Shown one piece after another: positions 5,221 through 60,060 of a DNA stretch of 64,000 nucleotides. Source of the stretch: Chloroflexota bacterium (GTDB lineage: Bacteria > Chloroflexota > UBA11872); the NCBI GenBank assembly GCA_026706485.1, contig JAPOYR010000002.1, forward strand, positions 321,251 through 385,250. The letters run 5' to 3'. The notes beneath the pieces are model-generated. The model had not been told where the DNA came from and made no database searches. It saw nothing but the letters and a program-made list of their open reading frames with translations. A program made the position numbers and the translations under genes. Each line of letters begins with the position of its first letter. The stretch's first letter is position 1.

Positions 5221-5372
5221 GCTCGTCGAGCCGTCCCCGTGTCACTTCGAGCCCTGATTCTGAAAGTCCGAGCCCTGTCCCTGTCTTTCCGAGCGCAGCG
5301 AGGAATCTCAGGGGCGCGGAGCATGCACCGCCGTCCTTAGATTCCTCGCCTGCGGCTCGGAATGACGGATCG
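5221..5372. repeat. Palindromic repeat units (families B and E) between the SBP gene and livM
   Basis: …ttccgagcgcagcgaggaatctcagg… (also at 7523); cgaggaatct-N30-agattcctcg inverted repeat; gctcggaatgac. Confidence 0.6.
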
Positions 5373-5373
5373 G

Positions 5374-6339
5374 TCAGCCGCCGTCTAAGCGGACGCCCGA
5401 TTTGCCCGATCCCCGCCGTGTCACGCGCCGCAGCTCGCCCAGGATGCCGCCCGGTCGCAGCAGGATCACTGCGACGATGAGCACGCCGACCATGAAAAAG
5501 CGGGCGTTCGGATCGGCGAGCTCACCCGGCAGGAACCGCGCGCCGACCCAGAGCCCCCAGACCACGAACGCGCCCAGGATGGCACCCAGGTTGTTGCCGG
5601 ATCCACCAACCATCAGCATGGCCCAGATGATGAAGGTGCCCAGCAGCGGATCGAACGTCAGCGGCGAGACAAAGCGGATGTGGTGCGCGAACAGCGCCCC
5701 GCCAACGCCCATGATCACGGCCCCTAACACAAACGCCTGCAGCTTGAAGCTGAAGACGTTCTTGCCACTGGCCGCGGCGGCGACCTCGTCTTCCCGGATC
5801 GCCCGCAGCACGCGACCCCACGGCGACTTCATGACCCGCTGCACCAGCACGAAAAGCGCCACCAGCACGACGATGACGGCGACCATGTAGAGGTAGTTGT
5901 ATTTGTCGGACGGCAGCCAGCCCTCCAGGAATTGGGGGATTTGGTAAAGGCCCTTCGACCCGTTGGCGACCCATTTCTCGTTGAGAAAGAAAAGCCGCAC
6001 GCTCTCGGCGATGCCCAGGGTGGCGATGGCGAGGTAGTCGTCGTTCAGGCGCAGCGTGACGTAGCCGATCACGAGCGCGATGACGCCGCACACCGCTCCG
6101 GCCGCGGCCAACGCCAGCACGAACCACAGATCAATCCCGAGATCGAGCATTCCGAGCTGGGCCCAGTTGCCGGCAAACACGAACTCCTCGAACAGCAACG
6201 GGTCCGCCGCCGGCGAGGTCATGAGCGCGGCCGTATAGGCGCCGAGGGCGAAGAATCCGGCGATGCCGATGTTGAAGAGCCCGGTGAAGCCCCAATGCAC
6301 GTTCAAGCCCAGGGCGAACACCGCGTAGATGCCCGCCAT
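5374..6339 (-). CDS. livM: Branched-chain amino-acid ABC transporter permease (LivM-like)
   Basis: Polytopic membrane protein matching the BPD_transp_2 family layout; lies in an operon with LivH/LivF/LivG homologues. Confidence 0.75.
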   Translation of the reverse strand: MAGIYAVFALGLNVHWGFTGLFNIGIAGFFALGAYTAALMTSPAADPLLFEEFVFAGNWAQLGMLDLGIDLWFVLALAAAGAVCGVIALVIGYVTLRLNDDYLAIATLGIAESVRLFFLNEKWVANGSKGLYQIPQFLEGWLPSDKYNYLYMVAVIVVLVALFVLVQRVMKSPWGRVLRAIREDEVAAAASGKNVFSFKLQAFVLGAVIMGVGGALFAHHIRFVSPLTFDPLLGTFIIWAMLMVGGSGNNLGAILGAFVVWGLWVGARFLPGELADPNARFFMVGVLIVAVILLRPGGILGELRRVTRRGSGKSGVRLDGG

Positions 6340-6403
6340 GACGACGAACCCGACCGCGTAGTCGACTACCCCAATGACGTTATCGATGGCTCATGGCTCC
6401 CTG

Positions 6404-7426
6404 TCAGGTGGACCCTCCCAGGAGGCCCCGCGGTCTGGCGAGCAGCAGCACGATCATGATGATGAAGGCGACGGCATGCTTGTAGCTGGGCGTGATCCAC
6501 TGGGTCGAGACTTCCATGCTGACGCCAATGACCAGCGCGCCGACCAAGGCTCCGTAGGGATTGCCGATACCGCCCAGGATCACGGCGGCGAACAGCGGAA
6601 TCAGGAACTCCCAGCCCATGCTGGGGAGCAGCTGCGCCTGAAACACCGCCAATAGGACTCCGGCCATTGCCGCCAGTCCGCCGCCAATGGCCCAGGTGGC
6701 CCAGATGACACGCTCCGTCGGAATCCCGCTCACCCGAGCCAGGTCGGGATTGTCGGCCGTGGCGCGCATGGCCTTGCCGATCTTGGTGCGAGTGAGCAGC
6801 ACGTACACACCAATCACGAGGGCGACGGCGAGCCCCCCGATGAACATGCTGTCCGGTGGAATGCGAACGTCCATCGGCAGGTGGTAGACCTGCCGAAACT
6901 CACGCGGGAATTGGTGTTTCTCGCTCGTCCAGATGATCTGAATGAGCCCGCGCAGGGCGATTGCCAGTCCCAGCGATGTCATGGCGATGACCACCGCATT
7001 CACCTTGCGGTTTCTCAGCCGGCGATAGATTCCGATGTCCAGCACGATGGCGCCGATGGCGACGACGGCGGCCGCCACCGGCAGCGCAATGAGCAGCGGG
7101 TAGCCGAAGCTGAACGGCCCGAATCCCTGCCCTTCAATTCCCACCAGGGGCAGCACACCGGTGATGATCGCGAATGCCACGTAGGCGCCCATGGCCATGT
7201 AGTCGCCATGGGCGATGTTGGCGAAACCCAGGTTGCCGTAGATCAACGTCAGACCGATGGCGCCGGTGGCGATGATGGCGCCCAGCACGAAGCCGTTGAC
7301 CACGAGCCCCATCTTGACGAAGGGGAGAAACCCGAGGACGAGCATGGCCGCAATGGCGACGGCCACGCTGTACTGCGGCATCCAGGCCAGGCGCGCTCGC
7401 TCGACGGCGGCCAGCAGGGCAGTCAC
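6404..7426 (-). CDS. livH: Branched-chain amino-acid ABC transporter permease (LivH-like)
   Basis: Hydrophobic protein with about 8–10 TM segments and a typical LivH C-terminal region (…IGNPYGALVGALVIG…). Confidence 0.75.
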   Translation of the reverse strand: MTALLAAVERARLAWMPQYSVAVAIAAMLVLGFLPFVKMGLVVNGFVLGAIIATGAIGLTLIYGNLGFANIAHGDYMAMGAYVAFAIITGVLPLVGIEGQGFGPFSFGYPLLIALPVAAAVVAIGAIVLDIGIYRRLRNRKVNAVVIAMTSLGLAIALRGLIQIIWTSEKHQFPREFRQVYHLPMDVRIPPDSMFIGGLAVALVIGVYVLLTRTKIGKAMRATADNPDLARVSGIPTERVIWATWAIGGGLAAMAGVLLAVFQAQLLPSMGWEFLIPLFAAVILGGIGNPYGALVGALVIGVSMEVSTQWITPSYKHAVAFIIMIVLLLARPRGLLGGST

Positions 7427-7439
7427 GCGGTCGCCGTCA

Positions 7440-7740
7440 TTCCGCGTCCGACTCCCTCTCCCTTGAGGGGACCCTTGCGCGACCCGTCCGTCATTTCCCG
7501 CGCCACCACGAACTCACCCGTGTCATTTGAGCGCAGCGAGGAATCTCGGATATCCATCCGCGGCCGCGTCCATCATGGCCCGCGTCCGACTCCCTCTCCC
7601 TTGGGGAGATCCTTCCAAAGTCCGGTAGGGGCGGGTCTCAGACCCGCCCGACGCCAGGCATCCGGCGCGACTCCAGACTCGACCGAACTGGATTCCAGCC
7701 TTCGCCGGAATGACGGAGGGGAGACCCATCGCGCCTGCCC
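7440..7740. repeat. Composite repeat array (families B, C, D, E) filling the 314-bp livH–livF spacer
   Basis: ccgtcattccgcgtccgactccctctcccttgaggggac and cgcgtccgactccctctcccttggggagatcc (direct repeats); gagcgcagcgaggaatctcgg; gtaggggcgggtctcagacccgccc; ccttcgccggaatgac. Confidence 0.7.
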
Positions 7741-8431
7741 TCACCCGCCCAGATACAGGCGGGCCACTTCGGGATTCTCCAGCAGCGCCGGTCCATGGTC
7801 CTCAAGGCGGTTTTCGCCGCCGGACAGCACGTAGCCCCGGTCCGAGTGCTGCAACGCCTCGCGGGCTTGCTGCTCGACCAGGAGTAGCGCTACGCCGGTC
7901 GCGTTGATATCGCGGATGCGCTCGAACACCATGCCCATGATCGCGGGCGACAGCCCGGCTGACGGCTCATCGAGCAGCAGGAGCCTGGGGTCGAGCATGA
8001 GGGCGCGGGCCAGAGCCAGCATCTGGCGCTGGCCGCCCGACAGGCTGCCCGCTCGTGCCTTTGGCCGCCGCGCCAGATCGGGGAACAGGCCGAACATCTC
8101 ATCGATGCGCGCCCGACCGTCATCGCCGCGGATGAAGGCGCCCATCTCAAGGTTCTCGCGGATGCTGAGGGACGGAAAGACGTTCGCGGACTGCGGCACG
8201 TAGCACAGTCCCGCCCGCACCACCCGCTCCGGGGCATGGTCGGTGACGTCCACGCCGCGAAACGTCACGGCGCCGCTGCGCACCGGCACCAGGCCCACCA
8301 CGGCTTTCATCAACGTGGACTTGCCGCAGCCGTTGGGGCCGATGATGGTCACGATTTCGCCCGCATTCACGACCAAGGAGACGCCGTGCAGGATCTCGGT
8401 TTCGCCGTAGCCGGCGACGATGTCGCGGGCC

Positions 8432-8445
<14 letters not shown>
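7741..8445 (-). CDS. livF: ABC transporter ATP-binding protein (LivF-like)
   Basis: Walker A GPNGCGKST, signature LSGGQRQML, Walker B LLLDEPS. Overlaps livG by 14 nt. Confidence 0.85.
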
Positions 8446-9220
<775 letters not shown>

Positions 9221-9298
9221 GTCGCCTCCGCTTCGCCCTGGTTGACGCGATACCTACCGTAGCGCCACGCGACGGGTGCACCGCGGACGCGCGGGCTG

Positions 9299-9745
9299 CT
9301 AACGGCCCAGCAGCTCAATGCGGCCACCGTAACGCTCGAAGTCGCCAGTGTTGAATGTCAGCAGCCGGCGTTCCCCGTGGGCCAACATGGTTGCGACGAC
9401 GTTGGCGTCGTGAATCTGCCGTCCCCCGGCGGGAACCTCTCGACATAGCGCCACCAAGAGCTCGGTCACCATGGGCCCGTCCTCGAGGATCTCGAAGCTG
9501 CCGATCAGCCGGCTCACGTCATCGAGAGCTTCTTCGCGCGTGAGGGCCACCGGCCAGGTCTGCGGACGAGTGACCACCGACAGGTATTCGCGTATCACCT
9601 GACGACTGATTCTCAGTGGTTCGGGGGCTCGAAAGGCGCGTTCCAGGCTTTTCCGCGCCGCGTCGTGGTCCGGCGCGCCGGGGATGCGGGACATCACCAG
9701 CACGTTCGTGTCGATGAACACGGCGGCGCTAGAGCCTCTCCTCAT
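9299..9745 (-). CDS. vapC: PIN-domain ribonuclease (VapC-like toxin)
   Basis: N-terminal FIDTNVLV motif with acidic residues at PIN positions; about 148 aa. The upstream partner gene overlaps it by 17 nt. Confidence 0.75.
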   Translation of the reverse strand: MRRGSSAAVFIDTNVLVMSRIPGAPDHDAARKSLERAFRAPEPLRISRQVIREYLSVVTRPQTWPVALTREEALDDVSRLIGSFEILEDGPMVTELLVALCREVPAGGRQIHDANVVATMLAHGERRLLTFNTGDFERYGGRIELLGR

Positions 9746-10133
9746 AGAGATCCTCTCGCCTGAGACTCAGGCCCTCCGGCCACACCGCGGTGGGATGGAC
9801 GGGCCACGCCTCGTCGAGCGGAAGCCTGGGCTCGGGCTTGGCGTGCGTTCGACGGAACAGCAGTTCCTCGGCTTCCATGTCCACCTCGGCCGTCTCCCAG
9901 CCGGCCACGCTCCAGGCCAGCGCCTGACTGTGACCGTTGCCGCGGCGCTGATTCGCCCACCACGGCCGGTGGAGACGCGCGGATGCGGGCAGCTCGAAGC
10001 CAATGATCGCCTCGATCTCGCCGAAGGAGGTCCGCCACTCCTGGCCCTGCAGCCCGCGCAGATGCCGATAGAGCCGCTGGTATTTGCCTCGGATCGCCAT
10101 CGCCCTATATCTCTGGTCACGGTCGATTGCCAT
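9729..10133 (-). CDS. Uncharacterised 134-aa protein encoded immediately upstream of and overlapping vapC; candidate non-canonical antitoxin or partner
   Basis: Real-looking ORF with good GC3 and no low complexity; its stop overlaps the vapC start. No recognisable AbrB/RHH/Phd motif could be seen; contains …LPASARLHRPWWANQ…. Confidence 0.45.
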   Translation of the reverse strand: MAIDRDQRYRAMAIRGKYQRLYRHLRGLQGQEWRTSFGEIEAIIGFELPASARLHRPWWANQRRGNGHSQALAWSVAGWETAEVDMEAEELLFRRTHAKPEPRLPLDEAWPVHPTAVWPEGLSLRREDLYEERL

Positions 10134-10164
10134 GTCGGGCCTGCCGTCTGGGGGAAGTGTCGGG

Positions 10165-10205
10165 CGGATGACCGATAGTACTATTTTAGGTAGTTAGTGA
10201 CCAAT
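10165..10205 (-). promoter_or_regulatory. AT-rich pocket with the 8-bp palindrome TAGTACTA upstream of the 134-aa/vapC operon; putative promoter or operator
   Basis: accgatagtactattttaggtagttagtgacc is the only AT-rich stretch in the surrounding 5 kb and sits about 40 nt upstream of the ATG at 10133. Confidence 0.35.
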
Positions 10206-10367
10206 GCACGAGCAATTCCATGTCGTCAGTCGGCGGCGTCCGCGGCGCGTGCGGCGCATACTTGAGGCGCGCGCAATCGAGAATCCGCTTCATGGCCACA
10301 TCTGATCCGATGCCGTTGTCGGTGGCCCGCATTCGCCGAATGAACGGCTGAGGCGGGGAGCTTCGCT

Positions 10368-12107
10368 TTGGCGTCTGCAAGCGCCGACGAACGAATCCGC
10401 TACGAGCCCGACGAGCGGTGTCCGCCGTTGGTGGCGATTGGCGTCGGCGTTCAAGGAGCCTTGCTGGCGCTGGTCCCGCTCGCGGTCGTCGCCGCCATCA
10501 GCGGCGTCGCGGCCGGCCAGGACGAGCGCCAGCTCACGTGGACCCTGGTCGCGGCCCTGGTGGTCGGCGGCATCGTCACCATCCTCCAAGCAGTTCGGGT
10601 CGGGCGCGTGGGCCTGGGTCACATCATGATCATGGGCGTCACGCCCAACTACATCGCGGTCTCGGTGTTGGCGTTGGCGGAGGGTGGGCCGTCCACGGTG
10701 GCGAGCCTGCTCGTGCTTTCGTCAGTGTTCTATTTCGCCGTGGCAGCTTGGCTGCCGCAGTTGCGACGCGTCATCACCCCCGCTGTGTCCGGCACGGTGC
10801 TGATGCTGATCGCGGTGACCCTGCTCCCGATCGCCTGGGATCGGCTCCAGGAAGTTTCTGAGGGCGCACCGGCGTTCGGAGGCCCGGGCGTCGCCGCCGT
10901 CACGTTGATCGCCACCACGATCCTCGCCCTGCGTGCGCCTCGGCAATGGCGGATCTGGTCGCCGTTGGCCGGAATCGCGGCTGGCTGCGTCACCGCGGTG
11001 TTGCTTGGCCTCTATGACTTCGGGCGCGTGGTCGACGCCCCGTGGTTTGGGCTCCCCGACGCCGGGTTTCCAGGACTGGACCTCACGCCGACGGCGGGAT
11101 TCTGGGCGCTGTTGCCGATGTTCCTGGTGGTGACGGTCGTCCAAGCGATCAAGGCCGTCGGCGACGGGGTGGTCGTGCAGCAGGTCGCCTGGCGGCGGCC
11201 GCGGGCGACCGACTTCCGTCTGATTCAGGGGACGATCTACGCGAGCGCGTTGGGCACGCTCTTGGCGGGGCTGACCGGTACGCCGCCCACGAGCGCGTTC
11301 TCGGCGTCGACGGTTTCGCTGACAAACTTCACCGGGGTCGCCGCGCGCCGCGTCGCCTATGTCGTGGGGATCATCCTTGTGGGACTGGCCGTCTTGCCCA
11401 AACTTACGGGCCTGATGCTCACCATTCCCAACCCGGTGATGGGAGGGTTCCTGGTGACGGCCGTCGGCATGCTCTTCGTCGAAGGCGTGCGGACGGTCGC
11501 GCGCGGGGGGCTGGACGCGCCCACGACCCTGGTGGTGAGTCTGGCGTTTGCGCTGGGCGTGGGCTTCGAGCAGCACAACGTGTTCGAAGGCGTGGTCCCC
11601 AGCCCTTGGAGCTCACTGCTTGGCAACGGCATCACCGTCGGCGCCGCAACCGCGATTGGCCTCACGCTCTTCCTGGAAGTCACCAAGCCCAGGCGCCGCC
11701 GCTTCGAGGGTCGCCTCGACATGGCCGATCTGCCGCGACTCGACGCCTATCTGCAGGAGACCGCGGCGGCCATGCGGTGGAATGCCGCATCAACCGAGCG
11801 GTTGCGCTCCGCCGGCGAGGAGGCGCTTTCCAGCTTGCTGCGGCCGGCTGACGGCGAGGATGACGGCAAAACGCCGCGCCTGGTCGTTACGGCAAGTCCC
11901 GAGGGTCGGGCCGTCGATCTGGAATTCGTGGCCGCGGTCGACGAGGAAAACCTGGCCGATCGCCTGGCCTATCTCTCCGACCACGACGAATCACCGGCTG
12001 AATGGGATGTCTCGTTTCGCCTGCTCCGCCACTACGCGTCGACGGTCCGGCACCAGAAGTACCACGGCATCGACATCGTCACCGTGCGGGTCGACGGATC
12101 GCCCTGA
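10368..12107 (+). CDS. NCS2/SulP-superfamily permease (xanthine/uracil-type) with an extra ~140-aa C-terminal cytoplasmic domain of unknown function
   Basis: Residues 1–430 form a polytopic membrane domain with a Gly-rich, APC-like fold. The C-terminal tail (RLVVTASPEGRAVDLEFVAAVDEE…VRHQKYHGIDIVTVRV) is soluble. Confidence 0.6.
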   Translation: MASASADERIRYEPDERCPPLVAIGVGVQGALLALVPLAVVAAISGVAAGQDERQLTWTLVAALVVGGIVTILQAVRVGRVGLGHIMIMGVTPNYIAVSVLALAEGGPSTVASLLVLSSVFYFAVAAWLPQLRRVITPAVSGTVLMLIAVTLLPIAWDRLQEVSEGAPAFGGPGVAAVTLIATTILALRAPRQWRIWSPLAGIAAGCVTAVLLGLYDFGRVVDAPWFGLPDAGFPGLDLTPTAGFWALLPMFLVVTVVQAIKAVGDGVVVQQVAWRRPRATDFRLIQGTIYASALGTLLAGLTGTPPTSAFSASTVSLTNFTGVAARRVAYVVGIILVGLAVLPKLTGLMLTIPNPVMGGFLVTAVGMLFVEGVRTVARGGLDAPTTLVVSLAFALGVGFEQHNVFEGVVPSPWSSLLGNGITVGAATAIGLTLFLEVTKPRRRRFEGRLDMADLPRLDAYLQETAAAMRWNAASTERLRSAGEEALSSLLRPADGEDDGKTPRLVVTASPEGRAVDLEFVAAVDEENLADRLAYLSDHDESPAEWDVSFRLLRHYASTVRHQKYHGIDIVTVRVDGSP

Positions 12108-12135
12108 CGCCGGCCGACGCGATCGGATCCGGCTG

Positions 12136-14257: not shown

Positions 14258-14286
14258 GTGGATTCCCACCTCCGCGGGAATGACGG
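14258..14286. repeat. Palindromic repeat unit (family A: ggtggattccc-N-cgcgggaatgac) in the PKS–ACP spacer
   Basis: Near-identical copies occur at 27566–27592 and 59958–59986. Confidence 0.7.
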
Positions 14287-14350: not shown

Positions 14351-24622
<10,272 letters not shown>

Positions 24623-26170: not shown

Positions 26171-26271
26171 ATCTGCACGCCTCCGCTATGTGCCCGCGAA
26201 CTTCGCGAAGCCGGCACGAAATACCGCCCGCATAGCCGACGTTTTCAGGCTCTTGGGTCTGTCAAAGGCGG

Positions 26272-26345
26272 TGGGCGCGAGGGGACTCGAACCTCTGACC
26301 TCCACGATGTCAACGTGGCGCTCTAACCAGCTGAGCTACGCGCCC
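26272..26345 (-). tRNA. tRNA-Val (anticodon GAC)
   Basis: Reverse complement GGGCGCGTAGCTCAGCTGGTTAGAGCGCCACGTTGACATCGTGGAGGTCAGAGGTTCGAGTCCCCTCGCGCCCA folds as a cloverleaf with anticodon loop TTGACAT. CCA is not encoded. Confidence 0.85.
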
Positions 26346-27539: not shown

Positions 27540-27740
27540 CTTGGTTTGGCCGCAGGCGAATTGGCGGTGGATTCCCGCCTCCGCGGGAATGACTGAGGGG
27601 GCAATACCCTCACTCCAGCCCTTTCCCCACGGAGAGTCTTTCGTCGCCCTTCGTCATTCCGGCGGAAGCCGGAATCCAGGTCCGCTGAACCTATCCGCCC
27701 TGCCGTAGGGGCGACGCATGCGTCGCCCCCAACTTCTTTA
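27540..27740. repeat. Composite array of short palindromic repeat units (families A, B, C, D)
   Basis: ggtggattcccgcctccgcgggaatgac; gtcattccggcggaagccggaatcc; gtaggggcgacgcatgcgtcgccc. Related copies are found at five other loci. Confidence 0.7.
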
Positions 27741-30632: not shown

Positions 30633-30904
30633 ACGACTCCGCGCCGGGCTACAAGGGCGGCGGTTGGTTCATGCGCCTGTGGTGGGCCGCGTGGCGCCGC
30701 GTGCTCTCGCGGCGCTGCGCCGCTTGCGACGGAGGGGGTCTGGAGGCCGGTCATTCCGGTCCGTTGCCCAGCGGGCGCCCCCACCGCTGCCCCCGCTGCT
30801 ACGGCACCGGACGCGTCGCCTGGCCGTAGACCGCTCCGTTTGCCGGCGACCGCCGGCGATGCATGCGGCTTCGGGGTGCGGGCCGGTTGGAAACCGGCCC
30901 CTAC

Positions 30905-31010
30905 CGGCCACGGCCCCATCGGGTCTGCGGTAGGGGCGAGTCTCCGACCCGCCCGCCCAGCGCCACGCCCGGCGTAGGCGCGACGCATGCGTCGCCCGGC
31001 CGTGCGTCTC
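30905..31010. repeat. Palindromic repeat units of family C (gtaggggcgagtctccgacccgccc … gtaggcgcgacgcatgcgtcgccc) in the glmS upstream spacer
   Basis: Shares cores with 7625–7650 and 27703–27728. Confidence 0.65.
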
Positions 31011-31122
31011 GAATCGCGGGATCGTCACGGCGAGGGTGTCCGAAAACGTTGTTCAAGCGACCAATCGGGCGGTATAGTTGACATAACCGCGCCCCCAGGC
31101 GCGTCTTCCTTGGAGCAGGCGG

Positions 31123-48704: not shown

Positions 48705-49060
48705 TGGTGGAGATGGGGGCGAGTCGAACGCCCCGTCCAGAGGCCGTCACCCCGCCGCGTCTACAGGCATAGCCGATCGCTATGGTTCTCGCCGGCTTGC
48801 CCGCCGTTCGGCCGCGGGCAACCCGACCAGTCCGCGTGTCTTAGCCGGCATATGCGGACGCCTCTGCCGGCGCAGCCTAGAGTGTTGGCGCCTGGTCCGG
48901 CCCGCTAGGCACGAGCCGGGCAGACGTCACGGCGCTTAGGCCGCGAGTGGGAGCGCTTCTTGCTCGCCAGTTACTTGGTTTGCCGCCTTTTTTTCGAGCG
49001 TGACGGCGTGCTCGACCTGCAGCAGCGGACCTCGGACTTCTGTCGAAACCCGGCATCCCC
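48705..49060 (-). ncRNA. ssrA: tmRNA (SsrA), about 356 nt
   Basis: 5' end GGGGATGCCGGGTTTCGACAG…; 3' tRNA-like end …GACGGGGCGTTCGACTCGCCCCCATCTCCACCA. Internal tag reading frame GCA AAC CAA GTA ACT GGC GAG CAA GAA GCG CTC CCA CTC GCG GCC TAA gives (A)ANQVTGEQEALPLAA. Adjacent to smpB. Confidence 0.85.
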
Positions 49061-49072
49061 AGCGATTCAATG

Positions 49073-49561
49073 CTAGCGCATGCGCCGCGCGATCTCACGC
49101 GCATCGTCGCGAGCGCGAATCTTCTCCCGTTTGTCATAGGCGCGCCGCCCCCGCACCAGGCCAATCTCGACCTTGGCCCACCCTTTCTCAAGGTAAAGCC
49201 GCAGGGGCACGGCGGTCTGCCCGGCCTGGTTGGTGTGGCGCGCCAGCTCGTCGATTTCGGCCCGATGGAGCAGCAACTTCCGGGGACGGTCGGGATCGTG
49301 ATTGGCGTCGGCGGCCGGCTTGTAGCGCGCGATATGCACGTCGCGCAGAAAGGCCTCGCCATCCTGGACGGCGACATAGCCCTCGCGCAGCGAAACCGAT
49401 CCGGTGCGCAGGCTCTTGATTTCGGTGCCGCGGAGCTCCAGGCCGGCATCGAACGTGTCCAGCACCACGTAGTCGTAGCGGGCGCGCCGGTTGACGGCAA
49501 GAGTGCGATTCCGGCTGGTCGGGGGCGGCGTCGCCTGCCGCCGCCGGCGTTTACGCGCCAT
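49073..49561 (-). CDS. smpB: SsrA-binding protein SmpB
   Basis: …RRARYDYVVLDTFDAGLELRGTEIKSLR…GYVAVQDGEAFL… matches the SmpB core. Has an Arg-rich N-terminal extension. Confidence 0.85.
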   Translation of the reverse strand: MARKRRRRQATPPPTSRNRTLAVNRRARYDYVVLDTFDAGLELRGTEIKSLRTGSVSLREGYVAVQDGEAFLRDVHIARYKPAADANHDPDRPRKLLLHRAEIDELARHTNQAGQTAVPLRLYLEKGWAKVEIGLVRGRRAYDKREKIRARDDAREIARRMR

Positions 49562-51579: not shown

Positions 51580-52971
51580 CTAGCCTTCGCTCCGAGCCGG
51601 AGGCGTGAGTCCCCGCGCCTCGACCGCCGCGATGAACTGCGCCCCGCGGTCGAACTCGTGCGCGAATAGTCCAAACGAGGCGCACGCCGGCGAGAGCAGC
51701 AGCGCGTCGCCGGGCTCGGCCATGTCGAGCGCGGCCGTGACGGCGGCGTCCATGTCGTCAACCGCCACCGGCGCCAGCGATCCCAACTGTGGGATCAAGC
51801 GATCGGTGCCCGCGCCCGGAAGCAGCACGACGCCGCGTATGCCGGCGTCGCTCTCCAAGCGCCGCGCCAGCGCGCTGAAGTCGAGCCGCTTGTCCGACCC
51901 GCCGGCGATGAGCGCCCAGGGCCCCGGAATGGTGTCGAGGGCCGCCAGGGTCGCGTCCGGAATGGTGGCGGTGGTGTCGTTATACACGCGGACCGAGCCG
52001 ATGGTCCCAAGAAAGTCCTGACGGTGCGCCACGCCGGTGAAGCCAGCGACGGCTCGGCGAATCGCTGCCTCCGGCACGCCGAGCTCCTGGGCGGCCAGCG
52101 CCGCCGCCGCCAGGTTCGCGCGGTTGTGCGCCCCGCGCAGCGCGGCGTCGCTCCAGCCCGGCGGCTCAGCCCCGGCGGGAACCCGGACGACGCGGCCCCG
52201 CGCGCGGTTCGCGAACCAATCGCCCCACCCCGGACCGGCGGGCAGCACGGCCCAATCGCCCGGCTGCTGGGCGCGGAGCAGCTCGGCCTTGGCGGCGGCA
52301 TAGGCCTCCATCGAGTCATAGCGATTGAGGTGATCGGGCAGCAGGTTGGTGACAATGGCGCCCGATGCGCGCGCGCCGGCTCCCGCCAGGCCCTCCGTTT
52401 GCCAGCTCGACATCTCGAGCACCACCACCTCGTCGGGTTGAATCTCGTCGAGCTGGGTCAGCGCCGAGACGCCCATGTTCCCCGCGAGCCGCGTGGGCCG
52501 TCCGGCGGCGTGCAGCATGGCATGCACGGCGGCAGCGGTGGTCGTCTTGCCGCGGGTGCCGGTCACGGCCACCACTTGCGACGCGGGACACCAGCGCAAG
52601 AACATGGTGAGCTCCATCTCGATGCGCGCGCCGGCCGCTCGCGCCACGGCCAGCGCCGGTGCATCCAGCGGAACCGCGGGGTTGCGCACCACGATCTCGG
52701 CGTCGCGAAAGTCCTGGAGATCGTGACGTCCGAGGACGTAGCGCACGCCGCGCGTCCCAAGCTGCTCCAGGCTCGGCGCCAATTGGGACGCGTCGCGCAG
52801 GTCCGTCACCACCAGCGACGCGCCATGGCGCCGCAAGAACTGGGCCACGCCCAGCCCTCCGCCGTGCAATCCCAGCCCCATCACCACCACGCGCCGACCG
52901 GTCAGCGCGCGCGGGCTGTCAATCGGCAGCGGTCGTGGCCGGTCAGTCATGACGCACATCCGGCCGGACAA
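51580..52971 (-). CDS. murD: UDP-N-acetylmuramoylalanine–D-glutamate ligase
   Basis: VVVMGLGLHGGG (Rossmann), GTRGKTT P-loop; Mur ligase domains. Confidence 0.85.
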   Translation of the reverse strand: MSGRMCVMTDRPRPLPIDSPRALTGRRVVVMGLGLHGGGLGVAQFLRRHGASLVVTDLRDASQLAPSLEQLGTRGVRYVLGRHDLQDFRDAEIVVRNPAVPLDAPALAVARAAGARIEMELTMFLRWCPASQVVAVTGTRGKTTTAAAVHAMLHAAGRPTRLAGNMGVSALTQLDEIQPDEVVVLEMSSWQTEGLAGAGARASGAIVTNLLPDHLNRYDSMEAYAAAKAELLRAQQPGDWAVLPAGPGWGDWFANRARGRVVRVPAGAEPPGWSDAALRGAHNRANLAAAALAAQELGVPEAAIRRAVAGFTGVAHRQDFLGTIGSVRVYNDTTATIPDATLAALDTIPGPWALIAGGSDKRLDFSALARRLESDAGIRGVVLLPGAGTDRLIPQLGSLAPVAVDDMDAAVTAALDMAEPGDALLLSPACASFGLFAHEFDRGAQFIAAVEARGLTPPARSEG

Positions 52972-53094
52972 AGACCATCGCCCGGCGGCAGCCCTGAATT
53001 CGGGCTGTCACGACAAACGCTTATGACAAGTCGCGCGGCGCCTATCTGAAACGATAGAGACGGGCTGCATGCACGGCGGACATCGGTCGAACAG

Positions 53095-53340
53095 TTTGAC
53101 ATATTTTGATGCTTCAAAATAGTTCGCCATCGTCGATGCCCGACTCGCGAACGATAAACTTCTCGCCTTTCGCGAAGGTGAACTATTGACATTGGCGTAG
53201 TAAGGCTTACAGTTGAAGCAGCTTACGGCCCCGGCCGTAACGTTGCTGCATTTTCGGGCTTGGGGAGGCTCGCTCGTGGTCCGTCATTCCGACCGCTTCG
53301 AATAAGGCACCGCCGTCGCCCATCCATTTTGGATGGGCGA
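53095..53340 (+). promoter_or_regulatory. AT-rich regulatory region: two TTGACA hexamers, several 8-bp palindromes and a stem-loop, upstream of the gene at 53408
   Basis: TTGACA at 53096 and 53186; TATTTTGA-tgct-TCAAAATA at 53102–53121; TCGCGAA at 53145 and 53169; TTACGGCC-CC-GGCCGTAA at 53222–53239; hairpin GCCCATCCA-tttt-GGATGGGC at 53318–53338. Confidence 0.4.
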
Positions 53341-53407
53341 TTGTCTTTATGTGGGCAGTCGGCCAGGACGAGGTCCGCGGGCACAAGTTGTCAGGGGGAG
53401 GCAATCA

Positions 53408-53818: not shown

Positions 53819-53853
53819 CGACCGCGGTCCTGCCAAGGGCGTACCATCAACGC

Positions 53854-54708
53854 ATGGCGCACGAGGCAGATTCGAGTGAGGCGCCGCTAACCGCCAGCGG
53901 TTTCCGAGCCCGCAAGGGCGGGGCTCCGCTTGTGTGCGTCACGGCGTACGACGCCCCATTTGCCCGCCTCGCCGAAGCGGCAGGGGTCGACGGGATTCTC
54001 GTCGGCGACAGCCTGGGACCCAACGTGCTGGGGCACGCGCGCGAGTTGCACGTGACCGTCGATGACATCGTGCACCACACCGCCGCGGTCACCCGCGCCG
54101 TCTCCGCCACCCTGGTCATCGGCGACCTGCCGTTCATGTCCTACGCCACGCTCGACGACGCCCTGCACAACGCCGCGCGGCTGGTGCGCGACGGCGGCGC
54201 GACGGCGGTGAAGCTGGAAGGCGGAACCGAAGTCGCCGGCATCACCGAAGGGCTGACGGCCCGCGGCATCCCGGTCATGGCGCACGTGGGCCTCACGCCG
54301 CAGTCCGTGCTCGCGACCGGCGGCTATCTGGCGCAGGGCGTCAACCTGGCGGGAGCGCAGCGCGTGGTGGACGGCGCGCGTGCCCAGGAGGCTGCGGGCG
54401 CGTTTGCGGTAGTCCTGGAAGCCATTCCGGCGCGTCTGGCCGCCGTCGTGACGGAACAACTGTCGATTCCGACGATCGGCATCGGCGCCGGCCCGAACTG
54501 CGACGGCCAGATTCAGGTGCTGCACGATCTGCTGGGGCTGACCAGCCGAACGCTCCCGCGCCACGCGCGGCGCTATGCCGACCTGGCCGGCGCCGCCCGC
54601 GAGGCGTTGACGCAGTACCGCGACGAGGTCACGCAGGGCGCGTTCCCGACCGCCGAGCATGGATTCAAGATCCGCCGCGGGGTGATCGACCGCCTGGAGC
54701 TTGACTAG
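53854..54708 (+). CDS. panB: 3-methyl-2-oxobutanoate hydroxymethyltransferase
   Basis: …LVCVTAYDAPFARLAEAAGVDGILVGDSLG… KPHMTase core. Confidence 0.9.
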   Translation: MAHEADSSEAPLTASGFRARKGGAPLVCVTAYDAPFARLAEAAGVDGILVGDSLGPNVLGHARELHVTVDDIVHHTAAVTRAVSATLVIGDLPFMSYATLDDALHNAARLVRDGGATAVKLEGGTEVAGITEGLTARGIPVMAHVGLTPQSVLATGGYLAQGVNLAGAQRVVDGARAQEAAGAFAVVLEAIPARLAAVVTEQLSIPTIGIGAGPNCDGQIQVLHDLLGLTSRTLPRHARRYADLAGAAREALTQYRDEVTQGAFPTAEHGFKIRRGVIDRLELD

Positions 54709-54714
54709 GCCGTC

Positions 54715-56361
54715 TCAGCCCGCCAGCAGAATCCCGGCGTCGCGAGCAATCCTGCGGCGCAGCCCGCGCACCCAGGGACCATAGGACGCCGCGTCAGCCA
54801 CGACCGCGTTCGAGGTGACGATCATCACCGCCGCGCTGGCCGCATAGCGCAAGGCCGCGCGCACCACGGCGACCGGGTCCACGATGCCGGCCGCCAGCGG
54901 GTCGACGTATTCGCCGGTCGTGACGTCGAACGCGCGCGGCGGATCGGCCGCCGCGACGGCATCGGCCACGACGGCGCCCTCGAAACCGGCGTTGCGGGCG
55001 ATCGTCGCCACCGGAGCCGCCAGCGCGCGCCGCACCACGCGCCAGCCGTAGGCCTCGTCCGCGTGCGCGTCGGGCGGCGCGGTGAGGTCCCGCGCGGCGC
55101 GGGCCAGCGCGGCCCCGCCGCCGGCCACGATGCCCTCCTCCAGGGCCGCGCGGGTTGCGGCCACGGCGTCCTCGACGCGCTGCCGCGCTTCCTGGCGCTC
55201 GGCATCCGTCGCCGCGGCGACGTGAATCTCCGAAACCGCTCCGGAAAGATTCCGGATGCGCTCTTCCAGCTTCTCGCGGTCGAACTGATTCTTCGCGCGG
55301 TCACGGTAGAGCCACAGCAGCTCCGCGCGATCGGCGACGGCCTGCGGCTCGCCCGCGCCACCCATGACCAACGTCTCGGTGGTGTCGCTGCGCACCCGCG
55401 CGGCGTGTCCCAGGACGCTCACGGGCACCGATCCCCATGGGTCACCCGACTCGTGCGCCACCAGCGTGGCCCCGGTGAAGATCGCCAGGTCTTCGAGCAT
55501 GGCGCGCTGGCGTTCGCCGAAAACCGGCGCGCGCACCGCGATCACGGACATTCGGCCGAGACGGTGGTTCTCGACAAGGGTGGCGAGGGTCTCACCGCCG
55601 ACGGTCCTCGCCACGACGAGCAAGCGCTGTCCGCCGCCGGCCACATAGGCCTCCAGGAATGGGAGCATCGGCCCCACGCCCCCGAGCTCGCGGTCGGTCA
55701 CGAGCACGTCGCAGTCTTCGAGCTCCGCGCGCATGCCGGCGCCCGCCGTGGCCAGTTGGCGCGAGGCCAGCCCGCGCTCCAACCGCATTCCCTCGACGGT
55801 GCGCGCCTCGGTGTTGAGTCCCTGGCCGAGCTCGACGGTCACCGCCGCGCCCAGCCCATAGCGGTCGAAGATTCCGGCGATGATCTCCCCCAGGTCGGCA
55901 TCGTGCGCCGCCAGCCCGGCCACCCAGGCCGTCTCGCGCCTGGTGGTAATCGGCCTGGCCTGCTCGCGCACGGCCTGGTCGACTTGCAGGACGGCGGCCG
56001 CCAGCCCCCGTCGCAGGCGCATCGGGTCCGCGCCCGCGGCCACCAGCCGCTGCGCTTCATGGGTCAGGGCCTGCGTCAGCACGGCGGCAGTGGTCGTGCC
56101 GTCGCCGGCGGCGGTGTTGGTGAGCCGGCAGGCCTCCGTGACGATGGCGGCGCCGGTCTGCAGAAATCCGTTGCGGAGCTGGATGTCCCGCGCGACTGAT
56201 ACCCCGTCATGCGTGATCTTCGGGGGGCCGATCTCTCCCCGGTAGGCCACGTTGCGTCCTCGCGGGCCCATGGTGCACTTGACGGTATTGGCGACGATGT
56301 CGACCCCGGCCGTGAGCGCCAGCCGCGCCTCGAGGTCGTGCAGGATCGCGACGTCGCTCAC
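54715..56361 (-). CDS. Divergent GroEL/Cpn60-family chaperonin paralogue (no GGM tail, no adjacent GroES)
   Basis: AGDGTTTAAVL; AVRAPVFGERQRAMLEDLAIFTGATLV (compare [24 protein letters not shown]); IVAGGGAALA. GTG start overlaps the trmD stop (GTGA). Confidence 0.75.
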   Translation of the reverse strand: MSDVAILHDLEARLALTAGVDIVANTVKCTMGPRGRNVAYRGEIGPPKITHDGVSVARDIQLRNGFLQTGAAIVTEACRLTNTAAGDGTTTAAVLTQALTHEAQRLVAAGADPMRLRRGLAAAVLQVDQAVREQARPITTRRETAWVAGLAAHDADLGEIIAGIFDRYGLGAAVTVELGQGLNTEARTVEGMRLERGLASRQLATAGAGMRAELEDCDVLVTDRELGGVGPMLPFLEAYVAGGGQRLLVVARTVGGETLATLVENHRLGRMSVIAVRAPVFGERQRAMLEDLAIFTGATLVAHESGDPWGSVPVSVLGHAARVRSDTTETLVMGGAGEPQAVADRAELLWLYRDRAKNQFDREKLEERIRNLSGAVSEIHVAAATDAERQEARQRVEDAVAATRAALEEGIVAGGGAALARAARDLTAPPDAHADEAYGWRVVRRALAAPVATIARNAGFEGAVVADAVAAADPPRAFDVTTGEYVDPLAAGIVDPVAVVRAALRYAASAAVMIVTSNAVVADAASYGPWVRGLRRRIARDAGILLAG

Positions 56362-57110
56362 GGGTGCGCCTCATTGGCATCGTCGGACCGGTCCAATTCG
56401 AAGTCGGCCAGCTGGCGTCGCTGCGCGTCGGTGAGGTCGCATTCGGACAGCAAATCGGGCCGTCGGTCGAGCGTGCGCCGCAGCGCGTGCGCCCGCCGCC
56501 AATCCGCCACGCGCCCGTGGTCGCCGCTGAGCAGCGTGGCCGGCACGCGCCGACCGCGAAACTCCTCCGGGCGGGTGTACTGCGGGTGCTCCAGCAAGCC
56601 CGCGGCATGGGACTCATCCCGCACCGAGTCTTCGCATCCGACGACGCCCGGAATCAGCCGCGAGGTTGCCTCGATGAGCACCAGCGCGGGCACCTCGCCG
56701 CCGGCGACGACGTAGTCGCCGATGCTGACTTCTTCATCGATGACCAGGTCGCGCACCCGGTCGTCGACGCCCTCGTAGCGCCCGCAGACGAGGATCAGGT
56801 GTCCCCGCTCGGCCAGGCGCCGCACGGCCGGCTGGGTGAGGGGCGGAGCCTGCGGCGAGAGCAGCACCGTCCACGAGTCCGCGGTGCGCAGCTCTTCGAC
56901 CGCGCGCACGATCGGCTCCGGCTTCATGAGCATGCCCGGCCCGCCGCCGTAGGCGTAGTCGTCAACCTGTCGATGGGGCGGCTCCGCCCACCGTCGCAAG
57001 TCGTGGACGCGGACGTCGATCAGCCCGCGTGCGCGCGCCTTGCCCAGCAGGCTTGCCTGCAGCACAGGTTCCAGCATGCCGGGAAAGATGGTGACGACAT
57101 CGAAGCGCAC
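56358..57110 (-). CDS. trmD: tRNA (guanine37-N1)-methyltransferase
   Basis: MRFDVVTIFPGMLEP…; SPOUT knot motifs. Confidence 0.9.
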   Translation of the reverse strand: MRFDVVTIFPGMLEPVLQASLLGKARARGLIDVRVHDLRRWAEPPHRQVDDYAYGGGPGMLMKPEPIVRAVEELRTADSWTVLLSPQAPPLTQPAVRRLAERGHLILVCGRYEGVDDRVRDLVIDEEVSIGDYVVAGGEVPALVLIEATSRLIPGVVGCEDSVRDESHAAGLLEHPQYTRPEEFRGRRVPATLLSGDHGRVADWRRAHALRRTLDRRPDLLSECDLTDAQRRQLADFELDRSDDANEAHP

Positions 57111-57220
57111 GGACGCCCTCCGGCTTTCTGACCTAGCAGCGGTCCTTCAAGCGTACGCCGGAAATCGGTGGCGCCGCGACGCGCCTCGGGCGGGCGTCCC
57201 GGCGTCGGCGACGATCGCGC

Positions 57221-57457
57221 CTAGCTGGCTTCCTGGATATCGAGCGCCAGCCGGCGTCCCTGGCTGATGGGCGCCGCCTGCATGACGGCCCGGATCGCGA
57301 TGGCCACCCGGCCCTGCCGCCCGATCACCCGCCCCATGTCCTGCGGATCGACGAACAGCTTGTACACGTGCAGGTGGTGGCGGCGAAAGCGCTCCACGCG
57401 CACCTCGTCGGGCACCGTGGCCAGGTTTCGGCCGATGAATTCGATCAGCTCGTCCAC
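57221..57457 (-). CDS. KH-domain RNA-binding protein (UPF0109/YlqC-like)
   Basis: …VYKLFVDPQDMGRVIGRQGRVAIAIRAV… GXXG loop; sits between rpsP and trmD. Confidence 0.75.
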   Translation of the reverse strand: MDELIEFIGRNLATVPDEVRVERFRRHHLHVYKLFVDPQDMGRVIGRQGRVAIAIRAVMQAAPISQGRRLALDIQEAS

Positions 57458-57466
57458 GGGTCCGGG

Positions 57467-57736
57467 CTACTCGCCGTTGCCGGCCGGCGCGGCGGCCGCG
57501 GCCTCGCGCGCGATCTCCAGCAGCTTGCGCACGCGCTCGGTGGGCTGGGCGCCCTTGCGGATCCACTCCTCGGTGCGCGGGACGTCCAGCACCACGGTGG
57601 ATGGCTCGGTGAGGGGGTCGTAGTGACCAAGCTCGTCGACGCGGCGGCCGTCACGACCCGAGCGGCGTTCGGCCACGACCACCCGATAGTGCGGGCGGTT
57701 TCTCCGACCAAGCCGCGCCAGGCGGATTCGCAACAT
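57467..57736 (-). CDS. rpsP: 30S ribosomal protein S16
   Basis: MLRIRLARLGRRNRPHYRVVVAE…; the start was set at the conserved MLRIRL. Confidence 0.85.
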   Translation of the reverse strand: MLRIRLARLGRRNRPHYRVVVAERRSGRDGRRVDELGHYDPLTEPSTVVLDVPRTEEWIRKGAQPTERVRKLLEIAREAAAAAPAGNGE

Positions 57737-57806
57737 ACGACCGTGCTCCAAACATGAAGGCGAGAAAAATCGAGCAGCCGCAAGGCTGCCCTGGGCCGCC
57801 ATTATG

Positions 57807-59708
57807 CTACATGGCGGCTACGACTGGGCGGACGACCCCCCACTGTCGGCCGGCGCCTCGCCGTCGTCGGGGGGCCTCGCCGCCGGGGGGCACGTATTCG
57901 GGAATCTGGCTCGTGTCCAGCGAACCGTCCTCGTTCGGCCCGACCTCCCACCGCTCGGGCCAGGCTAGGAAAAGCGACGCGAACTGGTCCTTGAACAGCA
58001 CCTGGTCGCCGAGCGCCACGTGGCGGTAGATGACGGTTTTCATGCCCTCGCGGGCTGAGTCCGTTTGCTTGACCTCGCCTGGTTCAAGCTCGGGGTTCGC
58101 CACGACCACCGGCGGCGGCGGCTCGGCAATTTCCCCGCGCGACGAATCGAGCGTGACCTTGCGCCCGATGGGCGCGCCGAAGATCTTGAATCGCAGGATC
58201 AGCCGCACCGGGTCGAACTCGCGTCGAATCAAGAGGTAGTGGGGGGTGTCGTTCGTCGCCCGAAGGTCCTGCCGTGGCTGCCAGATCGCCGCATCGAATC
58301 CGGGCGGACTGTCTTCGCCCAATTCGTAGTACCCAACGCGATAGACGTGCTGCCAACGCTCATCGATCGGCAGCCCGGCCCAAAACAGCGCCCGGAAGAG
58401 CGTGGTGGAAACCTGGCAGATGCCGCCACCCACGCCAGGCTCGGTGCGCGTGGGCGCGATGACCAGGCCCTCCACGAAGCCGTTGGCAACCGTGATCGGC
58501 CCCACCGTCTCGTTCAGGGAGAAGGACTGACCGGGCGCGATGATTGCGCCGTCGATGAGCCGAGATCCGTGGTCGATGTTGTGGATCCGGTTGTCTTCGG
58601 AGCCCCAGAAGATCGACTCGCCGACGGCGATGACGTTGTCGAACTGCAGCGCCTTGGCCGTCAGCCGACTGATGTCGGGCTTGACGATGACGATCGGCGC
58701 CTGCACCGCCGACTCGCCGCTGGCGAATGCGGTCTGCACGCGCGTCCAGAGTTTCTCGACGTCGACCTGCCGGCCCGCGCGGCCCTCGTCGAGCGGGACG
58801 ACTTCACCCGACGCGCTCATCTGAATGCGCGGGTCGGCCGGAGCGACTCGGAGACGATCCGCAACTTGCCGCGCGAGGCGCTCGAAGGACGCATAGTCCA
58901 GCGAAATCTTGATCTCCGGATCGGCGGCGGGGCCGTCGATCGCGACATCGGCAACCAGCGAGTCCCGCGCGACCTTCCAGCTCGCCCACGGCGTGTTGAT
59001 CCCGATGTTCCCGTCGAGCAAGCCGGCGGCATCGGCGGCGATTGGTTCGAGCTGATCTTCAACCACGGCGGGCGCGATGGCCTCGGGCGCCAGGTCGACG
59101 ACCAATCGCGTCGGCGGCCGCAAATTGGCGGCCACGCTTTCCGCATAGCCCGCGGGCGCGAGCTGTCGGCCCTCGCGCGACGGGTCGACGACCAGGCGGC
59201 GCCGGCCCGCCTGCTCCTCGATCCGCAGCACGCTGTCCACCGGGTCGAGGTGCACCGAGACGGCGATACGCTCCAAATACGCCTCAAACACCGTCGGGTC
59301 GAAGTTGACCACCGTGTGCCCCTCGAAACCCTCCGGTCCGGTGGCCGCACGGCCGAGGACCTGATCGGTCAGCGCCGCCTCGCGACGCCAGGCGTAGGCT
59401 TCACGAATAGGCGTCATGAAGTCCACCGAGATGCCGATTTCATGGGCGGCGGGCGTCCAGGTCCGCCCGCCAAGGCGCAGGACGATGGGACTCTCGATGT
59501 AGGGCGCCCACCGGGCCCGCGCGCGCGCCACGGCCTCGTCGAAGGTGAGGCCGGCCAGATCCTCCCCGTCAACGACCGCGCCGGGGCGAAACTGGCCGGC
59601 GAGCGTTGCTTCCCGCACGGCCACGAACGCGGTCCAGCCTGAGGCGGCAGCAGCGGCGGCGCCAATGCCACCGGCAGCGGTGGTGATGAGCATCTGGCGA
59701 CGGGTCAT
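57807..59708 (-). CDS. VanW-family protein with Tat-like signal and N-terminal peptidoglycan-binding-like region
   Basis: MTRRQMLITTAAGGIGAAAAAASG; VanW core GGGICQVSTTLFRALFWAGLP. Confidence 0.7.
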   Translation of the reverse strand: MTRRQMLITTAAGGIGAAAAAASGWTAFVAVREATLAGQFRPGAVVDGEDLAGLTFDEAVARARARWAPYIESPIVLRLGGRTWTPAAHEIGISVDFMTPIREAYAWRREAALTDQVLGRAATGPEGFEGHTVVNFDPTVFEAYLERIAVSVHLDPVDSVLRIEEQAGRRRLVVDPSREGRQLAPAGYAESVAANLRPPTRLVVDLAPEAIAPAVVEDQLEPIAADAAGLLDGNIGINTPWASWKVARDSLVADVAIDGPAADPEIKISLDYASFERLARQVADRLRVAPADPRIQMSASGEVVPLDEGRAGRQVDVEKLWTRVQTAFASGESAVQAPIVIVKPDISRLTAKALQFDNVIAVGESIFWGSEDNRIHNIDHGSRLIDGAIIAPGQSFSLNETVGPITVANGFVEGLVIAPTRTEPGVGGGICQVSTTLFRALFWAGLPIDERWQHVYRVGYYELGEDSPPGFDAAIWQPRQDLRATNDTPHYLLIRREFDPVRLILRFKIFGAPIGRKVTLDSSRGEIAEPPPPVVVANPELEPGEVKQTDSAREGMKTVIYRHVALGDQVLFKDQFASLFLAWPERWEVGPNEDGSLDTSQIPEYVPPGGEAPRRRRGAGRQWGVVRPVVAAM

Positions 59709-59929
59709 GGAGCAGGTGGGCTCACAGCGCCATGGATGAATTCAGTATAGGAACGATGTCGCCGTTTAAGGTGTTATTTGTAACTTGAACGGTGGCCCGC
59801 GCTGCGCGCAGCGTGGGATCCGCCGCGGATGAGTCGCCCCGGCACATCGTTTTCTCCGCCCAGGGTCCGGCCCCCTCTCCGTGGAGAATTCCTCTGCAGA
59901 ATCCAGCCGGACTTGGGGATGACCGAGCG

Positions 59930-60060
59930 CATCCTGTCCGCCCCCAGATTCAATGAAGGGTGGATTCCCGCCTTCGCGGGAATGACGAGCTGCTCCGGCT
60001 CCCTCTCCCACGGGGAGAGGGTTGGGGTGAGGGGTCCCGCCGCGCCCCCTTTCAACGCCT
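59930..60060. repeat. Palindromic repeat units (families A and D) upstream of rplS
   Basis: ggtggattcccgccttcgcgggaatgacg; ctccctctcccacggggagagggttggggtgagggg (inverted repeat). Confidence 0.7.

Follow-up and report, generated by a model that had tools for sequence, protein, structure and literature searches.

A stretch of 64,000 nucleotides from an uncultured Chloroflexota bacterium (GTDB lineage UBA11872; contig JAPOYR010000002.1, positions 321,251 to 385,250), hereafter the window, carries 20 short palindromic repeat units or fragments. They are distributed over seven intergenic spacers, among them the interior of the liv transporter operon, the spacer between a polyketide synthase (PKS) gene and an acyl carrier protein (ACP) gene, and the regions upstream of glmS and rplS. 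The window corresponds to positions 268592-332591 of a 338-kb metagenome scaffold in ENA, which supplied the source's gene calls. Its GlmS shares 98% identity with a protein that NCBI attributes to a Chloroflexi metagenome-assembled genome, and the further relatives listed with an organism name are Chloroflexota as well. The original prediction grouped the units into types A to E of a single, lineage-specific family resembling repetitive extragenic palindromes (REPs) or miniature inverted-repeat transposable elements (MITEs), and proposed a search for a cognate REP-associated tyrosine transposase (RAYT). It is likely that these spacers are instead mosaics of three independent, non-autonomous, structure-forming repeat classes known from other bacteria, namely CGTC-tagged REPs (types A, B and E), GTAG-tagged REPs (type C) and the G/C-rich intrastrand triplex motif (TM, also BoxC) of Escherichia coli (type D).

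The recurrence of the units is well above background. Every unit cited in the original prediction was found in the window, displaced by at most about 13 nt, and an all-against-all comparison of the non-coding stretches recovered all of the named families and little else. The sequence GGATTCCNGCNNNNGCNGGAATGAC, which joins types A and B, gives five matches in the window against 0.01 expected from shuffles, and the head octamer GTCATT[TC]C gives 12, ten of them non-coding by a draft gene map. The CGTC core pattern has no match in 1.31 Mb of unrelated bacterial loci, which comprised GlmS relatives of up to 51% identity from many phyla, among the matches listed. Intergenic DNA makes up 10.1% of the window by the source's gene calls and contains all 20 units, in agreement with the claim that they avoid genes and occupy the liv operon interior and the PKS-ACP spacer. 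Clustering of the units as mosaics within spacers was likewise borne out, and the median spacer length is 292 nt where units are present (n = 7) and 64 nt where they are absent (n = 41; Mann-Whitney p = 2e-4). The observation of multi-copy, short, intergenic palindromic repeats holds, far above chance.

That the units are chance palindromes or products of metagenome assembly is a negligible possibility. The genome has 68% G+C, and a loose GTAG pattern taken alone gives 6 matches against 2.8 expected, which is not significant; however, the true GTAG units are five GTAGGGGC copies with 9-bp stems, backed by covariation, and the five matches to the CGTC pattern far exceed the shuffled expectation. 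Assembly artefact is contradicted by the spacers themselves, as independent Logan assemblies made from other runs contain them at 100% identity and a scaffold from a different study at 97.8%. One additional candidate, GTCATTCC at 30750, one of the ten octamer matches mapped as non-coding and absent from the original list, was rejected as a chance match inside a conserved open reading frame (ORF) of 54 aa, since the corresponding ORFs of relatives lack the octamer. This ORF (30669-30830, plus strand), just upstream of glmS, contains two CxxC pairs (MRLWWAAWRRVLSRRCAACDGG...CPRCYGTGRVAWP), is kept in relatives down to 72% identity and has no Pfam match; it probably encodes a real small zinc-ribbon protein.

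Types A and B form one family, whose two versions are distinguished by a compensatory exchange of C-G for G-C in the stem, and type E is a long-loop variant with which they share the tag and outer stem. The tagged strand of A and B is laid out as CGTC/ATTCCCGC/GAAG/GCGGGAAT/CCA, and all five intact units have an 8-bp stem beginning with AT, a 4-nt loop and a CCA tail; the unpaired tag is CGTC in four of them and AGTC in one. These units are located at 7689-7716 (minus strand; CGTCATTCCGGCGAAGGCTGGAATCCA), inside the liv operon and 24 nt downstream of the livF stop codon; at 14259-14286 (minus), in the PKS-ACP spacer and with one G.T pair in the stem; at 27568-27594 (minus), the copy tagged AGTC; at 27651-27678 (plus), a copy whose 8-bp stem, of the CCGGC/GCCGG subtype, is perfect (-9.0 kcal/mol, z-score -3.4) and which forms an inverted pair with the preceding copy, tags inside; and at 59961-59988 (minus). 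Stem cells of the CGTC units are 100% paired, including the one compensatory swap. Three of the five intact units fold into the 8-bp stem and 4-nt loop at about -9 kcal/mol (z approximately -3.1 to -3.4); the G.T-bearing copy at 7689 also adopts the canonical stem and loop (-5.7 kcal/mol, z -2.0), and the lowest-energy fold of the 14259 copy is not the canonical stem. Selection on one strand was considered and rejected: both imperfect window copies have G.T on the tagged strand, but a larger sample has nine G.T and seven A.C mismatches, which is not a significant difference.

The long-loop units occur at 5283-5311 (plus; TGTC/TTTCC/GAGCGCAGCGA/GGAAT/CTC), with a weak fold of -4.0 kcal/mol, and at 5339-5369 (minus; CGTC/ATTCC/GAGCCGCAGGCGA/GGAAT/CTA), 4 nt from the livM stop codon. 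The two constitute an inverted pair with the tags outside, of which 5283-5311 is the left half, so that the copies predicted at 5288 and 5352 are plus- and minus-strand partners. A decayed long-loop unit at 7520-7549 (plus; GTCATTTGAGCGCAGCGAGGAATCTC) has an exact 19-mer in common with the unit at 5291, and the copy predicted at 53283 is represented only by a decayed CGTC-like unit at 53282-53308 (plus), a weak assignment. Two fragments had not been listed: a CGTC head (GTCATTCCGCG; 7436-7446, plus), cut off by the D unit that comes next, and a head with half a stem (GTCATTTCCCGCG; 7490-7502, plus). Similar half-units are found in the relative L097, where two in tandem (GGTCTCCC-TTCGCGGGAATGACGGAGG; 16590-16670) consist of loop, 3' arm and tag only; the breaks fall at or near the loop and may result from cleavage or recombination at the hairpin. 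A further CGTC copy lies 3.8 kb upstream of the window.

This architecture is that of the CGTC-1 repeats, which are defined by a CGTC tag, an 8-bp stem starting with AT, a 4-nt loop and a CCA tail, with TGTC or CCTC also accepted as tags for membership, and which have been equated with the dRS3 element of Neisseria (Di Nocera et al. 2013, PMC3733652). The dRS3 element has been extended to the 28-nt NTS, CGTCATTCCCGCGMAVGCGGGAATCYRG (Chenal et al. 2025, PMC11893778). All five intact window units differ from the NTS consensus by one to three substitutions; the unit at 59961 has a single substitution (27 of 28 positions identical), within the one mismatch that the published NTS search allows, and the others have two to three. 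On these grounds, types A, B and E are assigned to the CGTC-1 REPs, and hence to the dRS3/NTS group or "Ssn-related motif" (SRM). Like the CGTC elements of Neisseria, the local units are intergenic, form inverted pairs and contribute to mosaics. They depart from the published SRM in that the loop of most local copies is GGAG or GGAA, which falls outside the SRM search pattern, and in that the long-loop variant stands alongside the standard form; a CGTC pattern of our own was used in place of the SRM pattern, which is too strict for the local loops. The host also differs, as an uncultured Chloroflexota bacterium: five phyla were listed for CGTC repeats in 2013, and Chloroflexota was not among them (PMC3733652).

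Outside this genome, copies of the CGTC units at 93-100% identity are present on replicons of Azospirillum, Neisseria gonorrhoeae, sphingomonads, Photobacterium and others, and at least 120 metagenome contigs ranging from 32 to 69% G+C contain exact matches to the 26-nt CGTC pattern. The long-loop E variant had no match in the plasmid collection and is the only unit type without an outside match. In Neisseria, the NTS is bound and cut as single-stranded DNA by SsnA, a 94-aa GIY-YIG nuclease whose gene is typically flanked by the repeat (PMC11893778). A corresponding association was recovered from independent contigs. Ssn-like ORFs with a GIY-YIG domain (PF01541) are found near CGTC units in nine of 240 loci selected by the pattern, compared with none of 199 control loci, and several of the nine are flanked by CGTC units on both sides, as described for CGTC-1/NTS. 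Blind clustering of ORFs near CGTC units ranked the GIY-YIG cluster first for the metagenome set and among the leading ones for the viral set. The published link between CGTC repeats and GIY-YIG nucleases is reproduced in these contigs.

Type C comprises five units in the window, in each of which the tag GTAG abuts the 5' side of a G+C-rich 9-bp stem with a loop of 2-4 nt. The unit at 7625-7649 (plus) has a TCA loop (-11.8 kcal/mol, z -3.5), and that at 27705-27729 (plus) has a fully palindromic 22-nt body (-12.1 kcal/mol, z -3.95). The other three are carried on a block of about 176 nt (30843-31018) upstream of glmS: 30880-30904 (minus), which had escaped the original list; 30930-30954 (plus), with one stem mismatch; and 30974-30997 (plus; GTAGGCGCG...), also with one stem mismatch. 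The first two of these form an inverted, REPIN-like doublet with facing tags 25 nt apart, the one case observed. Among seven copies from the host lineage, five of the nine stem pairs have changed on both sides and 95% of stem cells are paired, values reached by none of 500 shuffles. The GTAG-tagged REP class, with 24 GTAG families, was defined by a stem of 6-13 bp, a short loop, complementary stem variants and frequent inverted doublets (PMC3733652), and type C is accordingly classified, from its tag, stem and compensatory variation, as a member of this RAYT-linked class. As in other GTAG REPs and REPINs, the cluster is present or absent among close relatives. Two features set it apart, in that no RAYT gene turned up nearby and that exact copies of the local units occur in phage-like contigs of IMG/VR, of which 19 contain the 27705 unit and five the 7625 unit, these being the two units searched. 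The matching contigs have nothing else in common with the window, and they carry many more units of the form GTAGGGGC-stem-GCCC with other covarying stems.

Type D had been taken for a simple palindrome but reads instead as a three-block triplex-forming motif (PMC4666352). By definition, TM/BoxC elements have three consecutive blocks of 6-15 nt separated by loops of 1-6 nt, in which all triads are allowed (Holder et al. 2015, PMC4666352). The complete copy at 59999-60037 (plus) has the order CCCTCTCCC-ACG-GGGAGAGGG-TT-GGGGTGAGGG; its blocks, within 60001-60034, measure 9, 9 and 10 nt (pyrimidine, purine and purine), its loops 3 and 2 nt, and its reverse-Hoogsteen triads would be seven C-G*G, one T-A*A and one T-A*T, all allowed. 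It is identical to TM no. 17 of E. coli K-12 at 30 of 34 positions, including all three blocks, the differences being confined to the loops. The remaining copies are incomplete. Those predicted at 7455 and 7578 are truncated and do not have the three blocks: the first (7447-7474, plus; TCCGACTCCCTCTCCCTTGAGGGGA) has lost the third G-rich block and folds weakly, and the second is at 7585-7612 (plus), where 24 nt at 7580-7603 are identical to 7442-7465. A decayed copy at 27606-27640 (minus), previously unlisted, was recognized by local alignment to the full TM.

Type D is thereby identified, on its block sequences, as a G/C-rich intrastrand TM of the E. coli kind. Of 5426 complete E. coli genomes, 5366 contain matches to the TM, with a median of 15 sites per genome, and so do 635 records of plasmids or chromids, whose hosts include Klebsiella, Rhizobium and Deinococcus. 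As in E. coli, the local TM is intergenic and lies in rearranged, variable spacers. There are also differences: the window has one full and three decayed or truncated copies, whereas E. coli has A/B inverted pairs, and the local copies are intermixed with REPs from the two other classes. A fixed CGTC-TM composite element was considered and rejected, as orientation and spacing vary among copies and TM pairs in Azospirillum have no CGTC unit nearby. The identity of the TM blocks across phyla is the most interesting loose end of this analysis. We know of no mobilizer or binding protein for the triplex motif, and clustering of ORFs in 119 viral loci with the TM gave phage structural genes and mug only. 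The same clustering gave nothing nuclease-like near GTAG units.

The view of the original prediction, in which one lineage-specific REP or MITE family is mobilized by a single RAYT, is very improbable. It accounts for the units all being short, palindromic, intergenic and clustered, for the RAYT-type tag on the GTAG subset and for the long-loop E variant having no match in the plasmid collection. Nevertheless, the three classes have no sequence in common, each matches a separately described family, and near-identical CGTC, TM and GTAG units exist in unrelated organisms. Extragenic palindromes of REP type are supported, and a RAYT partner remains the expectation for type C; it is not for the CGTC class, whose characterized partner is the GIY-YIG nuclease Ssn (PMC11893778) and whose repeats were not associated with transposase genes in a published survey (PMC3733652). 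As for the MITE alternative, the units are hairpins of 24-39 nt with no separate terminal repeats. A MITE is an element of about 100-400 bp bounded by terminal inverted repeats, with target-site duplications; these features were not seen at the units, though no formal test was made.

Nor is any of the three classes lineage-specific, in view of the Neisseria-like CGTC units, the TM matches in E. coli and the type C copies in IMG/VR. Each class has exact copies in viral contigs of that collection, and mixtures of classes are found in viral or proviral contigs from unrelated samples: L468 (IMGVR_UViG_3300013125_000682) contains 15 GTAGGGGC-type units and three triplex motifs in 13.4 kb, L478 six GTAG units and one TM, and L477 six GTAG units and one CGTC unit. 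Because these contigs mix classes, their co-occurrence is not unique to this genome. The arrangement as a whole resembles the bacterial interspersed mosaic elements (BIMEs) of E. coli and the neisserial intergenic mosaic elements (NIMEs), in which several short repeat types are assembled in enlarged spacers in variable order and orientation. It is distinguished from both by its component set (CGTC, GTAG and TM) and from BIMEs by the lack of evidence here for the integration host factor or gyrase binding motifs that define them.

The units also differ between close relatives. The syntenic loci compared came from relatives whose nucleotide identities are 97.8, 86.9, 82.1 and 71.7%, together with a 939-nt contig (L089) at about 94%. 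Between the window and relatives at 72-94% identity, unit content differs at four orthologous spacers. Upstream of glmS, the block with three GTAG units is absent from the same spacer in L097 and L098. Between ftsH and an MFS gene, the window has 40 nt and L097 a 416-nt mosaic that combines one GTAG and one CGTC unit with a TM and CGTC halves. The spacer between a PALP gene and a glyoxalase gene is 289 nt with four units in the window and 16 nt in L099. Upstream of rplS, the window has a CGTC unit (minus) and a TM, and L089 combines a decayed TM with a GTAG unit and an oppositely oriented CGTC unit of the other stem subtype. Such differences at orthologous positions indicate that units are gained and lost over short evolutionary times, with rapid turnover at these spacers. 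In addition, of 20 contig ends from independent short-read assemblies, nine are inside a unit or no more than 4 nt away from one (for example, Logan contig L002 ends at 27593 and L088 starts at 59962), the units making up about 0.9% of the window. Such a pattern would be anticipated for units with further copies elsewhere in the genome.

Turnover at the rplS spacer also bears on whether the units are parts of small protein-coding genes, a proposal that is extremely implausible. It derives from the 97.8%-identical strain, in which a 53-aa ORF is annotated across the CGTC-TM pair upstream of rplS (L086 9752-9913, equivalent to window positions ~59918-60079). This ORF has no Pfam match, does no more than span the repeats and was probably called in error because of them. 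In the 94% relative, the corresponding position holds another set of repeats. Furthermore, the units occur in both orientations, and none is inside a gene with coding-type third-position G+C.

A more serious alternative is that the units are mainly RNA elements, acting as 3'-end stabilizers, attenuators or terminators, for instance to set the expression of the liv ATPase genes relative to the permease genes. REP-mediated mRNA stabilization is established in E. coli. Five of the seven spacers are downstream of at least one gene, and in the liv and PKS-ACP spacers the tagged CGTC strand is the sense strand, 24 and 64 nt past the stop codon; REPs in the published survey are mostly downstream of genes and plausibly transcribed (PMC3733652). 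Against this, the hairpins are not followed by a T-run, both orientations are found within one spacer, two of the spacers (59709-60167 and 52951-53407) are divergent promoter regions, the mismatches, G.T versus A.C, are not skewed to one strand, related genomes do not have units at the same spacers, and Rfam gives no match at the units at its gathering and E-value thresholds. A general RNA explanation is weakened by the mixed orientations, divergent sites, missing T-runs, absence of bias and unit-free relatives, and we regard it as a tentative possibility. A role in transcripts is possible for some copies, notably those of the 359-nt livF-livH mosaic.

The interpretation as three independent repeat classes would explain the structures as follows. 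The tagged strand of a CGTC unit, when present in single-stranded DNA, would fold into a hairpin. In Neisseria and Wolbachia, the small GIY-YIG nuclease Ssn binds this hairpin and cuts nearby, limiting the recombination of incoming single-stranded DNA (PMC11893778). By extension from that work, the local CGTC hairpins would be Ssn substrates that restrict recombination and perhaps spread the repeat. GTAG hairpins would serve as substrates of a RAYT, an HUH tyrosine transposase, and would usually be mobilized as inverted doublets. In the TM, the pyrimidine block and two purine blocks would fold back into an intrastrand triplex, promoting local rearrangement. By analogy with these systems, we infer that the host encodes Ssn and RAYT proteins that act on the local units, and the units may in turn affect transcripts or recombination.

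Several observations weigh against this interpretation. The published SRM search pattern matched two of the five intact CGTC units, compared with 0.63 expected, and the long-loop E units and truncated D units, which are provisionally assigned by their sequence similarity, fold no better than shuffled sequence. Neither tblastn nor Pfam searches of called genes and small ORFs detected a GIY-YIG gene in the window or in about 11 kb of adjacent scaffold, the tblastn queries being consensus sequences that were validated by matches of 60-76% identity in other contigs. In the same approximately 75 kb, no Y1-transposase or RAYT was found by Pfam or by tblastn with a RayT query, for which there was no positive control. 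The absence of partner genes from this region is unsurprising for dispersed copies, and a profile search for a Chloroflexota Ssn returned no Chloroflexota name in the best 120 of at least 8000 matches. Finally, none of the three classes is present in the syntenic 22 kb of the 82% and 72% relatives, which implies patchy presence in the wider lineage.

This patchiness is also one of three observations that favor a broader scenario, in which all three classes arrived recently in the Chloroflexota lineage and spread together, crossing between phyla on phages or other mobile DNA and inserting preferentially beside one another. The others are the exact copies of each class in IMG/VR viral contigs and the identical TM blocks in E. 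coli, Azospirillum and this genome. We consider such a joint arrival unlikely. If it were true, the triplex motif too would have a conserved protein partner, given that triplex-forming ability alone would not fix an exact sequence across phyla.

The surrounding genes include several other features. Window positions ~2590-26270 encompass liv transporter genes, a PIN/DUF7662 gene pair and a 16-kb PKS cluster, and are variable among relatives: in L099, gltB adjoins the region starting at tRNA-Val, and L098 is without the PKS part. On its right the region is bounded by tRNA-Val (26270-26345), suggestive of an island that integrated at a tRNA gene. The PIN-domain gene overlaps the DUF7662 gene by 17 nt (9299-10133, minus) between the liv ATPase genes and a permease gene; the pair is kept in L098 and looks like a toxin-antitoxin system. 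The PKS is a single protein of 3423 aa (14351-24622, minus) with two internally duplicated segments (e.g. 14847-15146 and 22551-22850, 76% identical), followed downstream by an ACP, a phosphopantetheinyl transferase and a hydrolase; sub-threshold matches to the Rfam family 'ASpks' occur at 15884 and 23552 within its coding region. In-frame tandem repeats are present in the N-terminal part of a LivK-like binding protein (3845-4054; 42-nt period, 14-aa units VTQEVIKEVPVETV) and in a CAP-domain protein (63453-63578; 18-nt period, Pro/Thr-rich). A standard one-piece tmRNA (48705-49060, minus; Rfam score 137 bits, not reported by ARAGORN) directly adjoins smpB (49073-49561, minus).

All three repeat classes and their occurrence across phyla have already been described. 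What is new is modest, and consists of a Chloroflexota host for CGTC-1 and the TM, the interleaving of three classes in unstable spacers, and the exact viral copies. An uncultured, high-G+C Chloroflexota lineage is thereby added to the known hosts of the Ssn-type CGTC hairpin and the E. coli triplex motif. There is also a practical aspect, in that assemblies break at the units, across which annotation also yields spurious small ORFs, so that recognition of these repeats helps the finishing and annotation of metagenome-assembled genomes. The gains and losses of units among relatives at 87-98% identity provide natural material for the study of how such repeats spread.

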